From Escherichia phage Phi06_2974 B: a DNA stretch of 28,538 nucleotides. Positions 12,450 through 28,323 of this stretch are shown here, piece after piece (the first letter of the stretch is position 1; every line of letters starts with the position of its first letter). The notes under the pieces were generated by a model. The model searched no databases and was not told the origin of the DNA. It worked only from the letters and a program-made list of their open reading frames with translations. The position numbers and the translations under genes are program-made. Location of the stretch: sequence record KM389306.1, one strand, 5' to 3'.

Positions 12450-13926
12450 GCAGACGCCCCCAGACAGTTGCAACAAACATAATCCGTGCCAGCCGTTCCT
12501 GCAGGTCTTCAGCGTTCATCTGCGGGTACAGCTCGGCCAGTTCGCCCAGCAGCTCAGACGGATTGACGCCATCTTCAACCCGCTTAAACAAAGGAGCCAG
12601 TACGGGTTCCAGCGTGCCATTTAACGCGCCTCCGTTCATCAGAATATCCAGCGCGTCGTCCAGGGCCTGCTGTGCCTGAATATCGGCATCAATAGCTTCG
12701 GCAAATGACAGCGGCAGCATGTTCTTCTGGCGTTCTGACGGTGGTGTCTCGTCAATATCACCGTCCTGCAGCTGGTACTCACGCTTGAAGTATTGCGGGG
12801 TGAAGACCACACCGGCGCGGCTGAGTTTCTCGTCGCGGGTTGCCTGGGTATCGTCGACCGTTCCCTGTTCCCACATCTTCCAGACGGGGCTGGCCACGTC
12901 GCCAAAGTTCATTGATACCGCCATCCTGATGGCCTGATTCACCGCGCTTTCCACGATATCAGCGTCAGCGTCACGGATATCATCAGTAACCTCCAGTCCG
13001 GCCTGCGCGGAGGCGCGGTTACTGTTGGCCTCGGTGGTCTGGTTCTGCCCCAGCAGGGCGATGGAGATTTCACTGCGGGCAAGCGTTATCAGGTTCTGAT
13101 AAATATCGCTGCTGTCGGCCTTGCCTGCGGCCTCCTTAATTTCAATGGAGGAATCGTCGGGGATAGCGGCCACCGCGTCTTCCACCATTGCCTCCATGGA
13201 ATCCAGCAGCAGGTCAATCTCACCCTGAGCGGTACCGCGCGGATGCTTGCCGATAACCCACGGTGAGCCATATTTCTCGGCAAAGCGCACCCAGAACTTC
13301 ATGCCGCCTTTTTTGAAGGTCACGGGCCAGAAGCACATCGACAGGTCAGGGAAGCCATACGGGTTATCGTAGGTCGCGTCCTGACGCGGTACCACAAACT
13401 TGTTCAGCGGTACCGGCTCGCCTTCCAGCCCGGCGTCCTTGGCGCGAAAGCGCAGCAGGTTGTCGTTGTCGAACTGGAACCACTCAGGGGGTTTACCTAC
13501 GATATCGGCAATGGCCCAGGATTTAACAGAGCGTCCCCACATGATCTCACAGGGCTGATACCCGTAGAGAACGGCGTCGGTCATCTCGCCGATGATGCGG
13601 GACAGATCCAGATCGTCGAGCATATCCCGGATGAAGCTGAATACCCGCGCCGGGGCATGACCACGTTCAAGACCGCGCTCCAGCGATTTGACCGCCGCCT
13701 TACGCCTGCGGATGCAGCCACCGACCAGCGGGTCGGTACGCAGCTCGCGATAGATGCGGATATCCCGGCCCTGAGATTTCAGAATGGGGTCAGGGTTAGG
13801 CAGGTACATCCCCAGCCCGAAGAAGTCGATGGAACGGCTGCGCGAGGCGATCTGCTCCGTCAGTGTTTTATTAGGTTCGGCAAATTTGACGAACTCACTG
13901 GGTGAAACCCAGAGTCCACGGGCCAT
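12430..13926 (-). CDS. portal protein (Mu gp29-like)
   Basis: ORF track 498 aa; ATG overlaps terminase stop (TGATG); size/position after large terminase. Confidence 0.75.
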   Translation of the reverse strand: MARGLWVSPSEFVKFAEPNKTLTEQIASRSRSIDFFGLGMYLPNPDPILKSQGRDIRIYRELRTDPLVGGCIRRRKAAVKSLERGLERGHAPARVFSFIRDMLDDLDLSRIIGEMTDAVLYGYQPCEIMWGRSVKSWAIADIVGKPPEWFQFDNDNLLRFRAKDAGLEGEPVPLNKFVVPRQDATYDNPYGFPDLSMCFWPVTFKKGGMKFWVRFAEKYGSPWVIGKHPRGTAQGEIDLLLDSMEAMVEDAVAAIPDDSSIEIKEAAGKADSSDIYQNLITLARSEISIALLGQNQTTEANSNRASAQAGLEVTDDIRDADADIVESAVNQAIRMAVSMNFGDVASPVWKMWEQGTVDDTQATRDEKLSRAGVVFTPQYFKREYQLQDGDIDETPPSERQKNMLPLSFAEAIDADIQAQQALDDALDILMNGGALNGTLEPVLAPLFKRVEDGVNPSELLGELAELYPQMNAEDLQERLARIMFVATVWGRLHERDNG

Positions 13927-15449
13927 CAGTAATCCTCCAGCATACGGGCCGCCTGACGACGACGGCGTGAGCTTGCCTTCACCGGCCCTTTGTTAATTTC
14001 ACGACTGGCGAAGTACGCCAGCGCCAGTGCGATGGCTGAATCCCCGTGACGCTTGCCACTGTCAGACTTCGCTTTTGAGCGCTGTTCCGGCACGCGGGGA
14101 ACGCCGTTTACCACCTGAACGGCCCGCAGGTCATCCAGCGTATCTTCATCCTTCGGTAAATCCACCAGGTTGCCATCTTCCAGCGCAGCCTTGACCGGCG
14201 GCATATGCTCGCGATACCAGTTTTCAGTTGGCATCACCTGCTTAACCCGGCTGGAGCCGTAGCGCTGCATGGCGTATTCGGCGAGGTAAGAGCCGTTACC
14301 ACGGGCATCAAACGCTGCACCCAGCAGACCGGGCAGGCCATCCATCAGGTACCAGGCGATTTGCTCCTGCTGTTTGAACGGCACGTTGCGCAGCTCCAGC
14401 ACGAACGGCACGCGGCGAACCAGGTTCTTCTCCTGCAGCAGGGGATAGTCCACCGACAGGTCACCGCTGCGGCCAAAGTCGCGACCCAGGAAAGAACGTG
14501 CGTCAGCGGGGAGCGCCTCCAGCAACGGTTTCAGATGTGTATCAAGCCACTCCTGCGTCTCGCTCCAGCGGACATCATCGGGCTTCAGCTCGTAACCCTC
14601 CGGGCAGGTCAGACGCAACACCGGCGTGCCAGCCGACATACGGGACTCAATCAGGGCGCGGGACAGCCAGGCTCCGCCACCGTTGGCCGGAACACAGTCA
14701 AGCTCCTCCGATGCACCGGCACCGTAGAATTTGTACACCGATGCCATCCACGCCTGCTCGGATGCTTCCGACCATTCTTTCCCGGTACGCAGGCAGACGC
14801 GGTGGAACAGCCCTTGGGACACAGCCTCCTGAAAAGTAATGCGATGTACGCTGCCCCCCTGACGCCCGGCCCGGATATCACCGATAAGCGTATTGAACGG
14901 GTTATCGTCACCGTCATGGGTGGAGATAACGCGCACTTTACCGCCCCAGATAAGCATCGCCAGCGCCGCCTTCAGCAGTTCGTCCAGTTGCTCATGGAAC
15001 GCCGCTTCGTCGATAACGATGATGCCCTGACGGCCACGCAGGTTAGACGGACGGCTGGAGAGCGCGACAACGCGGAAGCCGGAGTCAGGGAATTTGATGG
15101 TGTAGGTCTTGATATGCTTGTCGTCTTCGTCCTCTTCCCAGAAACCCTCTTCGATTTCACTGGCGGCATAGTTGAATGCCCGCGCCCACATCGCACACGC
15201 CTGGATATATTCGACGGTCATGTCCTGGTTATAGGCGATGTAATACACGTTCATCCCACCCGCAGGGGCTGAAGAGGCTGCGGTCAGCACGTCATCGGAC
15301 GCCTCAGCCCAGGTGATACCGGTTCGGCGGCTCTTCTCAATCACCTTGAGCGGAGACGTGTCAGCCACCCAGCGCTGCTGGTAGGGCATCAGAACGGCGG
15401 GGATATCCAGCGCCGAGGTGTCAGGCAAAACAGGAGCAAGCTGGCTCAT
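13926..15449 (-). CDS. terminase large subunit (Mu gp28-like)
   Basis: ORF track 507 aa; ATG at 15449; acidic segment EEDEDD, nuclease-like C-terminal half; position before portal. Confidence 0.8.
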   Translation of the reverse strand: MSQLAPVLPDTSALDIPAVLMPYQQRWVADTSPLKVIEKSRRTGITWAEASDDVLTAASSAPAGGMNVYYIAYNQDMTVEYIQACAMWARAFNYAASEIEEGFWEEDEDDKHIKTYTIKFPDSGFRVVALSSRPSNLRGRQGIIVIDEAAFHEQLDELLKAALAMLIWGGKVRVISTHDGDDNPFNTLIGDIRAGRQGGSVHRITFQEAVSQGLFHRVCLRTGKEWSEASEQAWMASVYKFYGAGASEELDCVPANGGGAWLSRALIESRMSAGTPVLRLTCPEGYELKPDDVRWSETQEWLDTHLKPLLEALPADARSFLGRDFGRSGDLSVDYPLLQEKNLVRRVPFVLELRNVPFKQQEQIAWYLMDGLPGLLGAAFDARGNGSYLAEYAMQRYGSSRVKQVMPTENWYREHMPPVKAALEDGNLVDLPKDEDTLDDLRAVQVVNGVPRVPEQRSKAKSDSGKRHGDSAIALALAYFASREINKGPVKASSRRRRQAARMLEDY

Positions 15450-16627: not shown

Positions 16628-17277
16628 TTCTGTAATCCTTCCCGTTCGTCCAGCAGCCCGTTTATCTGGCTGCGCCAGATGCGGCACTGCTTCGCGTTGT
16701 CGATGATGTTGGCGAGGACATCACGCTGGGAGACGCCTGAGTTGCGTAGCCAGGCGTCAGCGGCTTCAGGTTGCCCGGACGCTGCGCCAGTGCCGGTGCC
16801 AGCGGCGGCAGTTGCGTCTGAATGACCGGTGTCGACGGATGCGTTGTCATATCCGAGCGCGGCGTTGTACTGGCGCACGAAACCGCGAGTAAACACGCAC
16901 TCAATGGGATGGCTCTTACCTTTTTCATCAATCCAGCGCTGTGTGACATCGTTAATTTGCCCCTGTAGTTGTTTGTTCTGGCTCTCCAGTTGAGCAATCT
17001 GCTCAAGGTAACTGGCTTCAGCCTGCTGCCCGGCGGCTACCTGTTCCTGATACCGTTTCGCCCAGGCCCGCAACGCAGCGTTCTCAAGCGTTGCCTGCTC
17101 CGTTTTGTACGTGTCGAATGCTGACTGCAACTCACTGACCGCCTTATCGCCGTCGCGCGTGGCGTTTTCATGCCCGCTTTTGTAGCCCAGGTAATAAAGC
17201 CCAATCAGAAAAGCATTTATGACCACCGCCAGCAGCAGACTGCGCCACGGCAGATTTTTTAGCAGGTTAGTCCACAC
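16624..17277 (-). CDS. i-spanin (Rz-like inner-membrane spanin subunit)
   Basis: ORF track 16624..17379; proposed GTG start at 17277 with SD GGGGAGG 8 nt upstream, just after endolysin stop; N-terminal TMD then long coiled-coil periplasmic domain. Confidence 0.55.
   Translation of the reverse strand: MWTNLLKNLPWRSLLLAVVINAFLIGLYYLGYKSGHENATRDGDKAVSELQSAFDTYKTEQATLENAALRAWAKRYQEQVAAGQQAEASYLEQIAQLESQNKQLQGQINDVTQRWIDEKGKSHPIECVFTRGFVRQYNAALGYDNASVDTGHSDATAAAGTGTGAASGQPEAADAWLRNSGVSQRDVLANIIDNAKQCRIWRSQINGLLDEREGLQK
16662..16928 (-). CDS. o-spanin (Rz1-like outer-membrane lipoprotein), fully embedded in i-spanin gene in +1 frame
   Basis: ORF track 16662..17006 trimmed to ATG 16928; MKKVRAIPLSACLLAVSC signal/lipobox-like N-terminus followed by proline-rich region; embedded architecture as in lambda Rz/Rz1. 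Confidence 0.45.
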   Translation of the reverse strand: MKKVRAIPLSACLLAVSCASTTPRSDMTTHPSTPVIQTQLPPLAPALAQRPGNLKPLTPGYATQASPSVMSSPTSSTTRSSAASGAAR

Positions 17278-18004
17278 AGCTGCCGCCTCCCCAGGTGAGA
17301 TAACGCGGGGCCAGTTCGTGCAGGATGCGCTGCGGATAATGACGGTTCTCCCGCCAGTTGGCAGTGCTGCGTCCGGCATTCACCGTGGCGACATGACCAA
17401 ACCAGCGGGTGCTGTCCAGCCCCTGCTGCGAGGCCAGCCGTTTGTCCCGCTGTACCCAGCCCAGACCACCGTTATAGCCTGACAGCGTCATGGCCATACG
17501 CTCGCAGTCATTGACGGCGCTGACGCGTTGCCACAGCCAGCGGTCATAGCTGACCAGCGCCCGGATGGCCCAAGACGGATTAAACGGTTCACGGCTGTTA
17601 AGCCCCGGCATCAGCTGACTTATCCAGTCAGCGGTGGTGGGCATAAACTGCGCCAGTCCCTGAGCGCCAACCGGCGAGACCGCATCAGGTCGCCAGCCGC
17701 TTTCCTGATGCAGCTGCGCGGCGAAGTCGGCCACCGGCGCAGACATTCCCCATTCAAGCCGGGCATTACGGATCACATCGTCGCGATACTGCAGCGCGGT
17801 CTGCGGTGGCTGGGCAGCGCGGGCCTGACTGAAGAAGCCGCCACACCAGAGCAGCCAGGCTACCGTTACTGAACCAAAGAGCTGCCACCAGAAACTGTGC
17901 TTACCCGTTCGGGCCTGCCCGTGGCGGGCCAGTTCGATGCCCAGCCCCAGCAGTACCAGCACGGCCCAGACAACCTGAGGCCAGTACATATAGAGGGTCA
18001 TCAT
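17267..18004 (-). CDS. endolysin, lytic transglycosylase (SLT) type with hydrophobic N-terminal signal-anchor (SAR-like) region
   Basis: ORF track 245 aa; motifs QESGW...GLAQFMP...SGYNGG consistent with SLT family; residues ~5-60 contain two hydrophobic stretches; ATG overlaps holin stop (TAATG). Confidence 0.65.
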   Translation of the reverse strand: MMTLYMYWPQVVWAVLVLLGLGIELARHGQARTGKHSFWWQLFGSVTVAWLLWCGGFFSQARAAQPPQTALQYRDDVIRNARLEWGMSAPVADFAAQLHQESGWRPDAVSPVGAQGLAQFMPTTADWISQLMPGLNSREPFNPSWAIRALVSYDRWLWQRVSAVNDCERMAMTLSGYNGGLGWVQRDKRLASQQGLDSTRWFGHVATVNAGRSTANWRENRHYPQRILHELAPRYLTWGGGSCVD

Positions 18005-18354
18005 TAAAGCCCCATCGCTACGGCCAGACAGACTGCAGCAACAATCAGCGCACGGCGGATTAGCGCAGCAGAAAAGACCAGGTGAAGGCCAGTCTGGACA
18101 GGGAAGCGACCATCAGCCATCAGCCTGTCATCATGCTTCAGGTACTGACCGGGACGGGCTTTGGGGAAAAGCGAACGGTCAAGCCAGTAGCCCAATACTG
18201 CCGCCAGCGTGATGAGTGATAGCTTGTAGACAACCACCGGCAGCTGCTGGGGCGATACCAGACCGATGGTGCCGAGCAGCAGCACAGCGGTCAGCAGCCA
18301 GCCGCTGAGACGTGGCTTTTTAACAGGGGGAATGAATTTTTTCAGGTTTTTCAT
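18004..18354 (-). CDS. putative holin (three predicted TMDs)
   Basis: ORF track 18004..18387 (GTG) trimmed to ATG 18354 with SD AAGGAG at 6 nt; 116 aa with three hydrophobic segments; first gene of lysis cassette. Confidence 0.5.
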   Translation of the reverse strand: MKNLKKFIPPVKKPRLSGWLLTAVLLLGTIGLVSPQQLPVVVYKLSLITLAAVLGYWLDRSLFPKARPGQYLKHDDRLMADGRFPVQTGLHLVFSAALIRRALIVAAVCLAVAMGL

Positions 18355-18466
18355 GAGCGTCTCCTTGTGTAGTGGAGACAGCATCACAAATGGTCGGGGA
18401 AAGGGATTTTAAACAGCGTTAATAGTGAGGATGCAGACGTGAACCGCATGATGGCTTTGAAAGAAC

Positions 18467-18498
18467 GACCAGCCCGGTGCGGTAACACCAGGCTGGTC
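18467..18498. promoter_or_regulatory. stem-loop (GACCAGCC...GGCTGGTC, ~12 bp stem) in the region between late operon and methyltransferase gene
   Basis: Inverted repeat read directly; no U-tract on the plus strand, short UUCUUUC on the minus strand. Confidence 0.3.
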
Positions 18499-18601
18499 AT
18501 CAACCCACAGGTATGCACTGTGAGCCGACCAGGGTTCAGTCAGTCTCGCGAGACCAGACTAGCCTGCCATATTTTCATTGATTGCAAAAGGCTTACGGAT
18601 A

Positions 18602-19372
18602 ATGAAAGAACAATCTTTACCCATCGTCCCATGGATTGGCGGTAAACGTCGTCTGGCGAAGCATATTTTACCATTGTTTCCGGCCCATACCTGCTATGTG
18701 GAGCCGTTCTGCGGGGCAGCTGCGCTCTATTTCCTAAAGACTCCCAGCAAGACCGAAGTCATTAACGATATCAACGGGGAACTGGTGAACCTCTATCGGG
18801 TGGTCAAGCATCATCTGGAAGAATTTATTCGCCAGTTCAAATGGGCGCTGGTCAGCCGTCAGATTTACAAATGGTTGCAGGATACGCCGGAAGAAACGCT
18901 CACCGACATTCAGCGGGCGGCCCGGTTCTACTACCTGCAGAAACAGGCATTTGGCGGCAAGGTCGCCGATCACACATTCGGTACCTCTACAACCAGTGCG
19001 CCGCGCTTCAATTTGCTGCGTATTGAGGAAGAACTGTCGATGGCACACCTGCGCCTGTCGAGAACGCTGATAGAGCATCTGGACTGGCACCAGTGCATAG
19101 AGCGATATGATCGCCCGCATACGCTGTTCTACTGTGACCCACCGTACTGGGGAACGGAAGGCTATGGTGTGGAGTTCGGGCTGGAAAACTATGATCACAT
19201 GGCAGATTTAGCGCGAAGGATCAAAGGGAAGATGATTATATCAGTGAACGATATCCCGGAAATGCGGCAGGTATTCAACGGTCTGAACATGCAGTCGGTT
19301 GATATCAGCTACAACCTTAAGGTAACAGGCAAACCCAGCCCGAAGAAAGAGCTGGTAATTTGTAATTTTTGA
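18602..19372 (+). CDS. DNA N6-adenine methyltransferase (Dam-like, orphan)
   Basis: ORF track 18578..19372 (TTG) trimmed to ATG 18602; motifs WIGGKRR, EPFCGAAAL (AdoMet binding) and DPPY (catalytic); no adjacent restriction endonuclease gene. Confidence 0.8.
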   Translation: MKEQSLPIVPWIGGKRRLAKHILPLFPAHTCYVEPFCGAAALYFLKTPSKTEVINDINGELVNLYRVVKHHLEEFIRQFKWALVSRQIYKWLQDTPEETLTDIQRAARFYYLQKQAFGGKVADHTFGTSTTSAPRFNLLRIEEELSMAHLRLSRTLIEHLDWHQCIERYDRPHTLFYCDPPYWGTEGYGVEFGLENYDHMADLARRIKGKMIISVNDIPEMRQVFNGLNMQSVDISYNLKVTGKPSPKKELVICNF

Positions 19373-19389
19373 AAGAGGTAGTTAAAGGT

Positions 19390-19412
19390 GGTGGTGCATC
19401 TGCAGCACCACC
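19390..19412. terminator. putative terminator hairpin between convergent methyltransferase and lipoprotein genes
   Basis: GGTGGTGC (7-nt loop) GCACCACC perfect 8-bp stem, 18 nt after MTase stop and 8 nt after lipoprotein stop; flanking runs only moderately U-rich. Confidence 0.45.
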
Positions 19413-19419
19413 TAAACAT

Positions 19420-19953
19420 TTAATCCTGCCTTGGACAAGTCCAATAATCATTATCTGGCTCTGGTGAATAAGCTTTCAAACAACCTGCTCGCGGGGTCTT
19501 ACCATCATCTGTCATAGGAACTTTTTCCTTATCAAGTTTCACGGTCAGGTCTCCACCAGGAACATCCGTTTTATCGAAAAAAACAGCCTGACATGCTGAT
19601 TTAGATATTTTCACTTCGTGGGCATTATTTGATATGAACAAATAACAATTATGACCAGAGGCTATGTAGTCACTTGGAATATTATTTTCGTCTTTAATAT
19701 GAAACTGCACCGTTGTCACCGGGCGTTCGCTATCCTCGGATACTTCGACTTTTTCAAAACTGTCCGCGTACTTATCCAGGCCGGGGAGTTGTTGGCGAAT
19801 AAACGGTAATTCGCGATTTACAACCGGATTATCTGTTTCAACGCTAAAAACCGCGTGCTCCTTAGCTGTGGTGGACGTATCAGCAGGATCGGTATTATCT
19901 CCACACCCAGATAAAACAAATATCAACGGTAAAAATAATTTGCGCATAGTCAT
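19420..19953 (-). CDS. lipoprotein of unknown function (moron downstream of repressor)
   Basis: ORF track 177 aa; N-terminus MTMRKLFLPLIFVLSGC = signal peptide + LSGC lipobox; visibly lower G+C than flanking phage genes. Confidence 0.6.
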   Translation of the reverse strand: MTMRKLFLPLIFVLSGCGDNTDPADTSTTAKEHAVFSVETDNPVVNRELPFIRQQLPGLDKYADSFEKVEVSEDSERPVTTVQFHIKDENNIPSDYIASGHNCYLFISNNAHEVKISKSACQAVFFDKTDVPGGDLTVKLDKEKVPMTDDGKTPRAGCLKAYSPEPDNDYWTCPRQD

Positions 19954-19988
19954 GTCCTTATACCTCTAATGTTCTTAATAGGAACAGA

Positions 19989-20399
19989 TTAACCCGTATT
20001 TTTTAATCTTTCGAACGCTGCGGACAGCTCCTTAAGCTGTTTTTCCATATCAATCATTCGCTGTTTTTCCTCAGCGCCTCGCAGCAACTCTTTTCGCACC
20101 TCTGGCTCCAGTTGGTTGAGCAGCTCCAATAACTTCAGATCAGACTGGTTGAAATGCTGCTCCTGATTAGCTGGCTGTGCTTTCTCTACCCCAACAGCTT
20201 CCCCTTTACCAGTAAGTAGCCAATCTATTGATATGTTCAAATGGGTGCTTAGCGCAACAAGAGCCTCTGCATTAGGTTCTCTCTCTCCACGCAGATAGTT
20301 TTGAAGTGAGCGATATGGAATTTTTGACAAGTCTGACAATGCCTTAATTGTCAGACCCTTAGCATCCATCGCTTCGCGCAATCTCTCTTTTATACTCAT
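19989..20399 (-). CDS. prophage repressor, XRE-family HTH with coiled-coil C-terminus
   Basis: ORF track 19989..20495 (TTG) trimmed to ATG 20399; MSIKERLREAMDAKGLTIKALSDLSKIPYRSLQNYLRG... typical Cro/CI-type HTH; divergent from early operon. Confidence 0.65.
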   Translation of the reverse strand: MSIKERLREAMDAKGLTIKALSDLSKIPYRSLQNYLRGEREPNAEALVALSTHLNISIDWLLTGKGEAVGVEKAQPANQEQHFNQSDLKLLELLNQLEPEVRKELLRGAEEKQRMIDMEKQLKELSAAFERLKNTG

Positions 20400-20487
20400 T
20401 TGAACATATCTCAATTTGACATACCCGTTTGGGTGCGTACAATAGACCCAATAGAGTACATCATAACCCAACAGGAACACGGTGCAT
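20400..20487. promoter_or_regulatory. divergent early promoter/operator region
   Basis: Plus strand: -35 TTGACA (20416..20421), 16-bp spacer, -10 TACAAT (20438..20443); direct repeats CAATAGA at 20440..20446 and 20450..20456 overlap the -10. Confidence 0.45.
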
Positions 20488-20712
20488 ATGAACAAACAAC
20501 AAGTTCGGGCACGGCTGGTTGAAAGAGGCAGTAGCTTGCGCCAGTTCGCGCTTAACGCGGGCTATGAGCCACGAACAGTCACCCAGGCTGTCAGCCGCTG
20601 GGCAGGCAAAAGCGAACTTCCACGCGGTCGTTTGACTTATCGGATTTTGCGAGACCTTTCGGTCGCAATAGGCAAAGAAGTTACCCCCGGCATCCTCAAG
20701 GAGGCGTCATGA
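20488..20712 (+). CDS. Ner/Cro-like small DNA-binding protein (first early gene)
   Basis: ORF track 20482..20712 (GTG) with ATG at 20488; 74 aa; segment LRQFALNAGYEPRTVTQAV resembles Ner-family HTH. Confidence 0.5.
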   Translation: MNKQQVRARLVERGSSLRQFALNAGYEPRTVTQAVSRWAGKSELPRGRLTYRILRDLSVAIGKEVTPGILKEAS

Positions 20713-21023: not shown

Positions 21024-21932
21024 ATGGGACGCACAAAATCACAACCAGTTGAACTAGTGGAAGATGCACCGCTGACCGATGGTCTCAGTGTCAGTCTTAA
21101 TGCTATGTCCGAACATCGCCTCGAAATCATGCAGCAGTTTGGTGATGGCCTGCCGTATGAACGTGATCGTATTGTCCATGAAACACGTTTTTATATGGCT
21201 CAGAGTGCTGAAGCCATGCTGGAGGCGGGTAAACGACTGGTAATTCTCAAAGAAAATGAACCACATGGTGACTTCATCGACATCGTTGAGTCTCAGTTGT
21301 CCCTGTCCAAACGTACCGCGCAGGTGATGATGCAAGCATCCCTCAAATATTTGTCTCCCAAGCTTGAACCAAAAGCGCAAGCGCTTGCGCTTTTGGGTAA
21401 AACAAAGCTGTTTGAGTTGATGACGGAAGATGACGAAGACCTCGTCGAATTAGCCGATGGCGGCACGATTGCTGGTATGAGCCTCGATGATATTGATCGC
21501 ATGACAAGCCGCGAACTGAAAGCGGCCCTACGCGAAGCGCGTGAAACCAACGCAGCACAACAGCGCGTGCTTGCCGACAAAAACGAAAAAATCGACTCGC
21601 TCTCCACAAAACTGGAGAAGAAATCCCGTATCCAGCCGCCCAAGCCTGACGAAGAGGTGAAGAAGCTGCGTGCGGAAGTTACAGCGTTAGCGGTTGAGGC
21701 GGAATCTGCCATCGCCGTTCGACTGTCCAGCGCCTTTGAGACCCTGTGCGCATACTGTGCTGAAAATATGATTGATACCCCCAGAGACTTTATGGCCGGT
21801 CTGGTCTGCCAGTTGGAAAGCACCGCGCGTAGCCTGCGCTCCACATTTGACCTGCCGGACGAGCCGACAGGCAACGCCGCCCCTTCATGGCTGACTGACC
21901 CGACGCCAGAGATTAACGGGCAGGAGGCATAA
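21024..21932 (+). CDS. conserved hypothetical protein (DUF3102-like as recalled), coiled-coil central region
   Basis: ORF track 302 aa; SD AAGGAG; segment EAGKRLVILKENEPHGDFIDIVESQLSLSKRTAQVMM resembles a family I recall as DUF3102 (unverified). Confidence 0.4.
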   Translation: MGRTKSQPVELVEDAPLTDGLSVSLNAMSEHRLEIMQQFGDGLPYERDRIVHETRFYMAQSAEAMLEAGKRLVILKENEPHGDFIDIVESQLSLSKRTAQVMMQASLKYLSPKLEPKAQALALLGKTKLFELMTEDDEDLVELADGGTIAGMSLDDIDRMTSRELKAALREARETNAAQQRVLADKNEKIDSLSTKLEKKSRIQPPKPDEEVKKLRAEVTALAVEAESAIAVRLSSAFETLCAYCAENMIDTPRDFMAGLVCQLESTARSLRSTFDLPDEPTGNAAPSWLTDPTPEINGQEA

Positions 21933-25861: not shown

Positions 25862-26050
25862 ATGTCCATCAAATGTATCAACTGCCAGAAAGGTATCACC
25901 ACCCTGAAGTTCAGCGACGCCAGCGTCATTTCCTCCGGTAAGTACCGCGTACCAGCCGTCCTCATCACGCTGGTATGCCCACACTGTAGCCAGCATTACT
26001 ACACCGAAGTCCCGGCCATGGAATTCATCCCTTGTGAGGCAAAGAAATGA
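25862..26050 (+). CDS. small zinc-ribbon protein (CxxC...CxxC)
   Basis: ORF track 62 aa; ATG with SD AAGGA; Cys pairs CINC and CPHC about 35 residues apart. Confidence 0.5.
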   Translation: MSIKCINCQKGITTLKFSDASVISSGKYRVPAVLITLVCPHCSQHYYTEVPAMEFIPCEAKK

Positions 26051-27519: not shown

Positions 27520-27937
27520 GCAGCGTCTTATTCAACTCATTCATATTGCCCGCAGCGACCTCCAGATGGATGAGGACACCTACCGCCAGATGCTACAGGG
27601 GCTGACCGGCAAAGCCTCAACCAAAGGGATGGATACCCCACAGCTAAACCGCGTGCTGGAATCAATGAAAAAGAAAGGCTTTCGCATTAAGCCTGCCGGG
27701 AAAGCCAAGTCCGGCTTACCGCTCGACAGCCATCCGCAGTCAAAGAAAATCCGTGCGCTATGGCTTGAAATGGCTGCCGCAGGCATCGTCCGTGACAGTT
27801 CAGAGCAGGCGCTGGCGCTGTGGGTTAAACGGGAAACCGGCATCAGCGCGTTACGCTGGCTCAGCAATGAGCAGGCAAGTAGCGTGATTGAGAAACTGAA
27901 GAAGTGGCAGCGCAGAGCTGCGGGAGTGAAGCAATGA
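27509..27937 (+). CDS. gemA: GemA-like regulatory protein (Mu gp16 family)
   Basis: ORF track 27320..27937 trimmed to ATG 27509 (SD AAAAGGAG); 142 aa MMTKQRLIQLIHIARSDLQMDEDTYRQML... resembles Mu GemA; directly upstream of Mor homolog as in Mu. Confidence 0.55.
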   Translation: MMTKQRLIQLIHIARSDLQMDEDTYRQMLQGLTGKASTKGMDTPQLNRVLESMKKKGFRIKPAGKAKSGLPLDSHPQSKKIRALWLEMAAAGIVRDSSEQALALWVKRETGISALRWLSNEQASSVIEKLKKWQRRAAGVKQ

Positions 27938-28323
27938 GCGACCTGAATCAGTTTCGTAGTAAAGGGCCGGAACTGTTGGTGGAACTGGCACAGCATACCT
28001 CTGAGACTGTCCGCGAGATTATTGATATCGAACCCGCAGTTGCCGACCAGATTGGTCAGGCCGTCGCGAACCGCATGATGCAGGTCTGGGGTGGGCAAAA
28101 CGTCTATTTTCCGATGGGCATGGTCTGGAAGGTCAGCCAGCGCGACCGGGAAATTTTCCTGGAGTTTGACGGGCGCAACCATCACGAACTGGCCCGCAAA
28201 TTTGGTGTTTCACTACAGTGGGTTTACAGCGTGGTGAAGCGGGTCAGAAAAGAAGAACTGGATCGGATGCAGGGCAAACTGTTTGATGGCGAACCTGATG
28301 CCGATACAGGGAAAAAGGAGTAA
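27934..28323 (+). CDS. mor: Mor/C-family transcriptional activator (middle/late gene activator)
   Basis: ORF track 27904..28323 trimmed to ATG 27934 (overlaps gemA-like stop); 129 aa with C-terminal HTH region YFPMG...ELARKFGVSLQWVYSVVKR typical of Mor/C family. Confidence 0.65.
   Translation: MSDLNQFRSKGPELLVELAQHTSETVREIIDIEPAVADQIGQAVANRMMQVWGGQNVYFPMGMVWKVSQRDREIFLEFDGRNHHELARKFGVSLQWVYSVVKRVRKEELDRMQGKLFDGEPDADTGKKE

Follow-up and report, generated by a model that had tools for sequence, protein, structure and literature searches.

What does a DNA methylase gene without a partner nuclease do in the middle of a transposable prophage, which site does its product modify, and when is it expressed? 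The window considered here, a stretch of 28,538 nucleotides, is an E. coli BcepMu-like (Mu-like) transposable prophage, a type common in E. coli and its relatives. At positions 18602 to 19372 of the plus strand (ATG at 18602, stop at 19372) it carries a gene of 256 codons for an orphan alpha-class (D12, Dam-family) DNA amino-methyltransferase. The start codon has the same position in the RefSeq and GenBank annotation of identical or near-identical records. The identical protein, annotated as 'DNA adenine methylase', is found on at least 1000 public contigs and occurs across Enterobacterales. The gene is already known, intact and annotated, and is ordinary as a finding; its characterisation would be routine, and it leaves the understanding of phage orphan methyltransferases unchanged. 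To know which site it modifies, and when, would close a gap in the annotation of methylomes and would reveal whether these prophages owe part of their spread between strains to a broad anti-restriction function.

The gene occupies a slot of variable content, with the repressor on one side and the holin on the other. The minus strand carries the late genes, among them the holin, the SLT lysin (17267 to 18004), terminase and portal. The holin gene (18004 to 18354, minus strand, with its length taken from the KP12 annotation; the listed open reading frame spans 18004 to 18387) matches PF13272 (E = 1.5e-41) and phrog_1528; it opens the late operon for lysis and morphogenesis and diverges from the methylase gene. 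On the other side follow two further minus-strand genes, a lipoprotein gene at 19420 to 19953, convergent with the methylase gene, and an HTH_3/CI-type repressor at 19989 to 20399 (start according to the KP12 annotation; the mechanical open reading frame reaches 20495). The early operon runs on the plus strand from 20482 and ends with a Mor-family late transcription activator (27904 to 28323, plus strand; PF08765, E = 1.3e-42). This layout is as given in the preliminary description, which had placed the methylase gene between late operon and repressor, on the strand opposite to the late genes.

The same description had noted that a partner restriction gene is missing, and this holds: no cognate restriction endonuclease lies beside the methylase gene, since neither the holin nor the lipoprotein matches a nuclease, defence or PADLOC model. 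In the other contexts examined, the homologous cassette has no partner nuclease either. The lipoprotein (177 amino acids, lipobox LSGC at residues 14-17) has no Pfam or PADLOC match and is not a nuclease. It is a rare accessory gene, present in 20 of 5426 complete E. coli genomes; it follows the repressor gene on that strand at a distance of 35 nt, and the two are probably co-transcribed. In BcepMu itself, the equivalent slot contains no methylase; the gene was therefore acquired within the enterobacterial lineage and is not ancestral.

Local BLAST and alignment delimit a 144-bp leader (18458 to 18601, plus strand) that travels with the methylase gene. Homology begins at 18458 (98% identity in KP12, 81% in PhiKM/ST131), and the DNA between leader and holin varies among the phages. 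The limit at 18458 is common to KP12, PhiKM and ST131 and recurs in 528 E. coli genomes. Gene and leader move as a cassette among related prophages with differing neighbour genes, in accordance with the earlier view of an independent unit. At 80% DNA identity or more, the cassette is present in 555 of the 5426 complete E. coli genomes (602 places), or about one in ten, ST131 included. The prophage transposase is found in 639 E. coli genomes (708 places). Set against these 639 genomes and the 20 of the lipoprotein, the 555 genomes of the cassette indicate that the methylase comes near to being a core gene in this lineage of prophages.

The cassette lies between two strong hairpins. The first (18467 to 18498, minus strand; dG -32.3, z = -5.6, more stable than all 200 shuffles) is followed by GUUCUUUC on the minus strand. 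In the alignment, its upper stem differs in PhiKM and still pairs through compensatory changes, and it may well act as a terminator for minus-strand transcripts heading into the late operon. The second, a G+C-rich hairpin, occupies 19386 to 19413, where the stop codons of the methylase and lipoprotein genes face each other (dG -23.6 kcal/mol, z = -3.2). Of the shared hairpin terminator proposed earlier at this point, the convergence and the hairpin between the stops stand, but the terminator action does not follow: the plus strand has no T-run after this hairpin. The structure is real, but as a terminator of the methylase gene it is only a candidate. A consensus terminator scan called neither of the two hairpins.

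Within the leader, sequence and alignment suggest a candidate extended -10 promoter, TGcCATATT, at 18565 to 18573 (plus strand), which is identical in the window, KP12 and PhiKM. If used, it would yield a transcript with about 20 nt ahead of the ATG and an AAGG at a distance of 10 nt from this codon. A two-hexamer consensus promoter scan did not find this candidate and detected nothing relevant in the leader. A search of the leader for motifs that recur in the late intergenic gaps compared, or in the early operator region, gave only chance-level matches; thus the timing of expression is not readable from the DNA.

The protein itself is easily placed. Its translation carries the AdoMet-binding motif I, EPFCGAAAL, at residues 34-42 near the N-terminus, followed by a recognition hairpin region at about 117-136 and by motif IV, DPPY, at 179-182, which is the motif order of the alpha class. 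Pfam PF02086 (D12 class) matches with E = 1e-27 and 97.9 bits against a cutoff of 22, PADLOC MTase_II with 377 bits, and phrog_56 matches as well. The AlphaFold model (pLDDT 92.8, pTM 0.90) retrieves E. coli Dam in a Foldseek search with E = 6e-18 and TM 0.78-0.80, as well as DpnM (TM about 0.8) and M.CbeI (TM 0.80). Both motifs had been recognised from the letters alone, and domain matches, motifs, predicted fold and selection all agree with the Dam-like methyltransferase proposed then.

Catalytic substitutions in close homologues, named beforehand as a sign of an inactive gene, were not found: G38, D179, P180, P181 and Y182 are invariant across 56 to 59 representatives of 36-85% identity. 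Selection on the gene is strongly purifying: dN/dS is 0.075 in the comparison with the ST131 allele, 0.024 with KP12 and 0.083 with B3. An inactive or decaying gene was rejected in view of the invariant motifs and these values of 0.02-0.08. M.EcoGII, which had been considered as a relative, is a beta-class enzyme and was dismissed as such. Family matches, motifs, model and selection argue for an active alpha-class (D12, Dam-family) DNA amino-methyltransferase that stands alone and belongs to the B3 ORF48/M.EcoMIV subfamily; this is one part of an overall reading that we favour slightly.

Published data exist for M.EcoMIV (EC958_1101), an orphan D12-class enzyme of prophage Phi2 in the ST131 strain EC958 that shares 84% amino acid identity with the window protein. 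Its gene, too, lies in a BcepMu-like prophage, where it fills the corresponding holin-repressor slot, is oriented alike and has the conserved 144-bp leader. In contrast to the window, Phi2 has three small genes in place of the direct holin junction and no lipoprotein. That M.EcoMIV is the Phi2 gene appears from prophage identity and coordinates rather than from a locus-tag table. Forde et al. 2015 (PMC4659465) found in the EC958 lysogen that transcription of M.EcoMIV was significantly below that of dam, and none of the SMRT motifs could be attributed to the enzyme; these expression and methylome data belong to M.EcoMIV and not to the window allele. The literature that could be reached contains no enzymatic data for homologues of more than 65% identity, as Forde et al. 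had stated in 2015 (PMC4659465), and reports a recognition site for no close homologue. Later work on M.EcoMIV was not found in the literature after 2015, and an ST101 methylome preprint mentions only Dam-like prophage enzymes, unnamed and without an assigned specificity.

A second group of relatives is formed by ORF48 of Pseudomonas phage B3 and its counterparts in Bise and TJ1, with 65-67% full-length identity (65% to B3 ORF48). These are likewise orphan genes of transposable phages with the same central repressor-holin layout. They differ in position: there, the putative methylase directly follows a Com-like zinc-finger ORF, as mom follows com in Mu, and lies in the late cluster or at the genome end, whereas the window gene is inverted in the central accessory slot, without Com and with an unmasked start codon. 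In phiE125, VP882 and B3, the homologues stand at the end of or inside late gene clusters, in late orientation. Gp27 of phiE125 is about 66% identical to the window protein, and Woods and colleagues reportedly detected N6-methyladenine for it in 2002.

The protein would almost certainly modify adenine at N6. The great majority of enzymes with DPPY act on adenine, and so does every characterised relative except one. The exception, M.CbeI (PDB 7M6B), is an alpha-class protein with DPPY that makes N4-methylcytosine (PMC8616854); its match to the family profile is no weaker than that of the adenine enzymes and, as given above, it resembles the predicted model. An N4-cytosine activity of the window protein would have this one precedent, which is itself described as unique among N4-cytosine enzymes (PMC8616854), and we regard it as very improbable.

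The label 'Dam-like' is appropriate for the family and inappropriate for orthology. With E. coli Dam, T4 Dam and DpnM the protein shares the Pfam/TIGRFAM family, the motif order and, for the predicted model, the fold (TM about 0.7-0.8), but only 16-25% identity. It passes the cutoff of the Dam family TIGR00571 narrowly (117.2 bits against 114.85) and fails the Dam equivalog NF008152 of NCBIfam by a wide margin (69.8 bits against 441). In E. coli Dam, K9, Y119, N120, L122, R124 and P134 take part in reading GATC, and R124 discriminates the G:C pair of that site (PMC4417163). The aligned residues of the window protein are P10, F117, G118, K120, A122 and S129, so that the GATC-reading hairpin residues and the N-terminal lysine are absent. 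Moreover, its recognition hairpin is 3 residues shorter than that of Dam, rich in Ser, Thr and small residues, and variable within the family. A hairpin of this kind probably does not read its site as Dam reads GATC. That the target cannot be read from the letters was rightly anticipated: the alignment with Dam, DpnM and T4 Dam tells only which GATC-reading residues are missing.

These data bear on the idea that the gene is a phage copy of dam, whose GATC methylation would top up that of Dam on fast-replicating phage DNA, for instance against MutH cutting or DpnII-type restriction. Such a role has been proposed for T4 and P1 Dam. The narrow TIGR00571 match and the fact that the closest solved structures are GATC enzymes speak for it. 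So does the missing extra SMRT motif in EC958, which is also expected of a GATC enzyme because host Dam would mask its methylation. On the other hand, R124 aligns with Ala, K9, N120, L122 and P134 are changed as well, the hairpin is shortened, and the equivalog model fails. M.CbeI, with its GGCC site and N4-cytosine chemistry, matches the family profile about as well as DpnM does (130 against 132 bits), and a match of this strength therefore does not tell the specificity. In REBASE, M.EcoMIV stands as a putative type IIA enzyme, with an asymmetric site (PMC4659465), and GATC is depleted in the prophage, with 56 sites against about 130 expected. On balance, a phage Dam copy seems rather improbable.

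In phage Mu, adenines of the phage DNA are modified by Mom, which Com controls. The window gene has in common with this system only its proposed role, i.e. late modification of phage-DNA adenines and evasion of many restriction systems. Mom is an unrelated protein with acetamido-adenine chemistry (PMC3299994), and the window contains neither com nor a Com-type translational control. In the window, KP12, PhiKM and EC958, the 450 bp ahead of the methylase gene contain no CxxC...CxxC zinc-finger (Com-like) ORF, in contrast to B3, Bise and TJ1, where one is present. RNA structure does not mask the start codon, as the fold of 18575 to 18660 is no more stable than its shuffles (z = +0.65). Com-type control of the window methylase was rejected on these two results.

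Hia5, Hin1523 and Nma1821 are non-specific, Dam-related DPPY enzymes that stand in for Mom in Mu-like prophages of Haemophilus and Neisseria without mom, and an anti-restriction role is presumed for them (Drozdz et al. 2012, PMC3299994). If the window enzyme were a relaxed-specificity adenine methylase like these, it would modify adenines in most contexts and block many restriction enzymes at once. Relatives do fill the same niche, in that they take the place of Mom in a Com-controlled setting in a Mu-like phage (PMC3299994), the recognition hairpin is short, variable and rich in small residues, and silence in the lysogen would be expected of a potentially harmful enzyme. The window protein nevertheless appears to belong to a different subfamily, and its gene sits in the central holin-repressor slot instead of the mom-syntenic right end. 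When Drozdz et al. 2012 (PMC3299994) gathered the 1000 nearest sequences to Hia5, B3 ORF48 was not among them, and the Com-linked methylase in the mom position of Haemophilus phage SuMu, presumably a proxy for the Hia5 family, is a remote homologue only (BLASTP E = 0.027, hhalign probability 95%). The methylase sequence gives no positive sign of relaxed specificity, which we hold to be distinctly improbable.

It remains to consider when the enzyme acts. Two roles had been offered, protection of phage DNA and reprogramming of the host, and the first is better supported: homologues are coupled to Com or located in late operons, and the 84%-identical M.EcoMIV is poorly transcribed and without a motif in the lysogen. 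From this comparison, protection of phage DNA during lytic growth is most likely, and reprogramming of the lysogen is less likely. In the latter case, the resting prophage would express the gene and methylate the host chromosome, with the consequence of altered host expression or a 'vaccination' against incoming restriction-modification systems. An independent cassette with its own leader and candidate promoter, placed beside the immunity region and an accessory lipoprotein gene, would suit such a lysogenic conversion. The phi1026b homologue was indeed transcribed in lysogen culture, at 21,563 RPKM or about five times the level of the capsid gene (PMC2920897). Against it stand the low transcription of the EC958 enzyme in the same slot, the assignment of all SMRT m6A motifs of EC958 to other enzymes (PMC4659465), and the B3-type phages, in which the family is linked with a Com-like regulator that keeps expression late and under tight control. 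We consider lysogenic conversion a lesser possibility.

The vicinity of immunity genes is the usual place of genes that are expressed in the lysogen. The methylase gene adjoins such genes and points away from the late operon, and this was counted against a lytic role. Also counted against it were the missing Com, the unmasked start codon, the lack of a motif shared with the late gaps compared, and the phi1026b transcript in the lysogen (PMC2920897).

The overall reading, a functional orphan methylase cassette with non-Dam-type recognition that serves anti-restriction in the lytic phase, has in our judgement a little better than an even chance. According to it, the gene would be nearly silent in the lysogen and expressed after induction. 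The enzyme would recognise DNA by its shorter, Ser/Thr-rich hairpin, which lacks the GATC-reading residues of Dam, and would flip the target base into the DPPY pocket in a Dam-like manner. Replicating phage DNA would thus be modified before packaging, and the progeny could escape restriction in the next host. Without Com, the gene would have to be controlled by a weak promoter of its own, and perhaps also by repressor-lipoprotein transcripts that converge on it. Such a role would parallel that of mom in Mu, and the Com-coupled homologues in B3-type phages appear to act likewise.

A more far-reaching version, which we judge improbable, would regard the B3 ORF48/M.EcoMIV subfamily as a second line of enzymes that came to replace Mom independently in transposable phages and whose specificity is unusual (relaxed or asymmetric). 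Its members in enterobacterial BcepMu-like prophages would then have lost Com and would owe their silence in the lysogen to convergent repressor-lipoprotein transcription, with the two bracketing hairpins also shielding the late operon from read-through.

The open reading frame at 18602-19372 (+) starts with MKEQSLPIVPWIGGKRRLAKH and runs uninterrupted over 256 codons. Its product matches PF02086 (D12-class N6-adenine DNA methyltransferase, E=1e-27), PHROG 56 "DNA methyltransferase" and, over its full length, the PADLOC type II methyltransferase model (377 bits), while the TIGR00571 Dam-family model is passed narrowly (117.2 bits vs a cutoff of 114.85). Both motifs named in the preliminary description are present, EPFCGAAAL as residues 34-42 and DPPY as residues 179-182. 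An alignment of 56-59 representatives of clusters (36-85% identity) shows no variation at G38 and D179-P180-P181-Y182, so the homologues do not show the catalytic substitutions that had been named as a sign of an inactive gene. The AlphaFold model built from this alignment is confident (mean pLDDT 92.8, pTM 0.90) and comes closest in structure to E. coli Dam, DpnM and M.CbeI (TM about 0.8). Pairwise dN/dS values of 0.075 (ST131 allele), 0.024 (KP12) and 0.083 (B3) indicate strong purifying selection.

The window is a BcepMu-like (Bcepmuvirus) transposable prophage. Its late operon (-; holin, SLT lysin, terminase, portal, head and tail genes) is transcribed leftward, and its early operon (+; Ner-like gene, DUF3102, DDE transposase, ExeA/MuB-like ATPase, GemA, Mor) rightward from 20482. 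Between the two lie, in this order, the holin gene (-), a 247-bp gap, the methylase gene (+), a hairpin, a lipoprotein gene (-) and an HTH_3 repressor gene (-), which bears out the described position between late operon and repressor, on the strand opposite to the former and convergent with the lipoprotein gene. Over the 2.8 kb around the methylase gene (17800-20600), the E. coli CFS3292 chromosome matches the window at 100% identity; for the gene region, identity to a GenBank record under the name Klebsiella phage KP12 is 97%. Neither methylase neighbour, holin or lipoprotein, resembles a nuclease or defence protein in Pfam, PHROG and PADLOC searches; the enzyme is an orphan, as was proposed. 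The lipoprotein (19420-19953, -; 177 aa, lipobox LSGC, encoded 3' of the repressor) has no match in Pfam or PADLOC and a weak one to a PHROG of uncharacterised function; it is a candidate for a rare lysogen-expressed accessory gene, e.g., for superinfection exclusion. A near-consensus sigma-70 promoter (20416-20443, +; TTGACA, 16 nt, TACAAT; 11/12 matches) between the repressor and Ner-like genes is presumably the early promoter.

Homology to KP12 (98%) and to Escherichia phage PhiKM and prophages of ST131 (81%) starts at 18458, 144 bp 5' of the methylase ATG. From there to the holin gene the DNA varies among phages, with one additional gene in KP12 and three in PhiKM/ST131; BcepMu carries unrelated genes and no methylase in this slot, and different genes occupy the repressor-holin slot of B3. 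By these comparisons, the slot is variable and the methylase a mobile cassette within it. In a set of 5426 complete E. coli genomes, the cassette (at least 80% DNA identity) was found in 555 (602 places), the prophage transposase in 639 (708 places) and the adjacent lipoprotein gene in 20 (20 places). By these counts, the methylase is nearly a core gene of the prophage lineage, and its neighbours are sporadic. What the prophage carries is an intact, selected, orphan methyltransferase cassette with a Dam fold.

Across 18458-20600, the window and KP12 differ at 36 nucleotides, all within 18578-19330 (13217-13969 of the KP12 record); 35 of them fall in patches into the methylase coding sequence, with only two amino-acid changes, and the neighbouring 1.2 kb (lipoprotein and repressor) are identical. 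The pattern suggests that recombination with a second methylase allele took place in patches, under strong purifying selection. The KP12 record itself (GenBank OM835952.1, 'Klebsiella phage KP12 clone KP12_2, partial sequence') bears the taxonomy label Vequintavirinae. With a transposase and Mu-like head genes, the 23 kb examined belong to a transposable phage of the BcepMu type and share 97% identity with the window; the record is probably a piece of host prophage or a wrongly assigned contig, not part of a Vequintavirinae genome.

Hairpins flank the methylase gene on both sides. The one at 18467-18498, at the start of the conserved leader, is highly stable on the - strand (dG -32.3, z = -5.6) and followed 3' on that strand by the U-rich tail GUUCUUUC; its upper stem is altered in PhiKM, with pairing kept by compensatory changes. 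It looks like an intrinsic terminator of - strand transcripts reading through from the repressor and lipoprotein genes towards the late operon, and could halt such repressor-operon read-through ahead of it. For the other side, a hairpin terminator shared by the methylase and lipoprotein genes had been described. The hairpin as such is there (19386-19413; dG -23.6, z = -3.2), but the + strand has no T-run at this place, so naming it the methylase terminator exceeds the evidence. Downstream of the leader hairpin, a conserved TGcCATATT (18565-18573) fits a candidate extended -10 promoter; a two-hexamer promoter scan of the leader found nothing. Translation starts in an unstructured region (z = +0.65). 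Since no late-promoter or operator motif tying the leader to the late or early circuit was found, the timing of expression is argued from relatives and not from the window DNA.

Among these relatives, ORF48 of Pseudomonas phage B3 is 65% identical to the methylase and comes after ORF47, which is homologous to Com, the translational regulator of Mu. Phages Bise and TJ1 show this order too, the start of the methylase homologue abutting or overlapping the end of a zinc-finger ORF (CxxC...IKCPRC), and in phiE125, VP882 and B3 the homologue lies within or closes the late gene cluster in late orientation. Unlike B3, Bise and TJ1, the window has no Com-like ORF. Its sole CxxC...CxxC ORF (25874-25987, +; CxxC-x30-CxxC, CINCQ...VCPHC) belongs to the early operon, lies apart from the methylase gene and has a spacing unlike that of Mu Com. 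Dam-like methylases replacing Mom in Mu-like phages have been a theme of the literature since 2004-2012: as shown by Drozdz et al., other Mu-like prophages swap mom for the near-nonspecific Dam-related enzymes Hia5, Hin1523 and Nma1821, to which B3 ORF48 is not close (PMC3299994). With the Com-linked methylase in mom position of Haemophilus phage SuMu as a stand-in for this group, we obtained a remote homologue only (BLASTP E = 0.027, hhalign probability 95%). Both distances place the window enzyme in what appears to be a separate Dam-related lineage, which in some transposable phages lies in a com-mom-like operon. Relaxed specificity of the Hia5 type is quite unlikely for it.

For one close homologue there are published data. 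In E. coli ST131 EC958, a prophage of the window's type lies beside ycaL, with a methylase of 84% identity (WP_000783854.1) in the same slot. By its invertible tail-fibre segment (1,005,540-1,007,607), this prophage is Phi2 (PMC4134206), whose orphan D12-class enzyme was named M.EcoMIV by Forde et al. and is listed in REBASE as a putative type IIA enzyme (PMC4659465). From prophage identity we infer that M.EcoMIV is the product of the WP_000783854.1 gene. In mid-log LB culture its transcript was significantly below that of dam, and SMRT sequencing assigned all five m6A motifs of EC958 to other enzymes and none to M.EcoMIV; homologues more than 65% identical to it had no known site (PMC4659465), and no later determination was found in the literature searched. 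We slightly favour a Mom-like role in which the enzyme would be nearly silent in the lysogen and made upon induction, would methylate replicating phage DNA ahead of headful packaging, and would thus render the progeny resistant to restriction in the next host. Methylation of the host genome in lysogens is rather less probable; the position of the gene speaks for it, as does the phi1026b homologue, which reached 21,563 RPKM in lysogen culture vs 4,743 for the capsid gene (PMC2920897), but the low transcript and missing motif in EC958 speak against it. Accessory genes nearby in phi1026b are at about 10^5 RPKM, far above the methylase homologue (PMC2920897).

We agree with the preliminary description that the target site is unreadable from the sequence. 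The family profile scores M.CbeI (130 bits) and DpnM (132 bits) equally well, so family-level similarity, which extends to a GGCC enzyme, is uninformative in this respect. M.CbeI produces N4-methylcytosine despite its DPPY motif (PMC8616854), which leaves adenine specificity very probable rather than certain and N4-cytosine methylation highly improbable. A GATC-specific copy of Dam would fit the silent EC958 methylome; the recognition residues, however, make it unlikely. The protein falls far short of the E. coli Dam equivalog model (69.8 bits vs a cutoff of 441) and is, on this score, not a Dam orthologue. Dam contacts the G:C pair first and most discriminatingly through R124; Y119 intercalates, N120, L122 and P134 touch inner pairs, and K9 and Y138 participate too (PMC4417163). 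Pairwise and family-profile alignments agree in placing A122 at R124 (V, D or A in close relatives), P10 at K9, G118 at N120, K120 at L122 and S129 at P134. The sole aligned reading position kept is Y119, retained as aromatic F117, and the family-profile alignment requires a 3-residue deletion in the recognition hairpin. It is thus unlikely that the methylase reads GATC in Dam's manner. Also against a Dam copy is the depletion of GATC in the prophage. The whole window holds 56 sites vs about 130 expected under a second-order Markov model (ratio 0.43), with CTAG alone more under-represented. Reports that E. coli prophages and mobile elements are depleted in GATC agree with this shortage.

The finding of the preliminary description is correct, if an ordinary one. 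RefSeq annotates the exact protein, which occurs on at least 1000 public contigs as "MULTISPECIES: DNA adenine methylase [Enterobacterales]", and the 84% homologue has its REBASE name and a published, negative methylome analysis. Six proteins from the homologue search (P0123, P0139, P0146, P0150, P0168 and P0242) are giants of 1000-2500 aa with 2-4 copies of the methyltransferase domain, and resemble polyvalent anti-restriction proteins of phages and conjugative elements.
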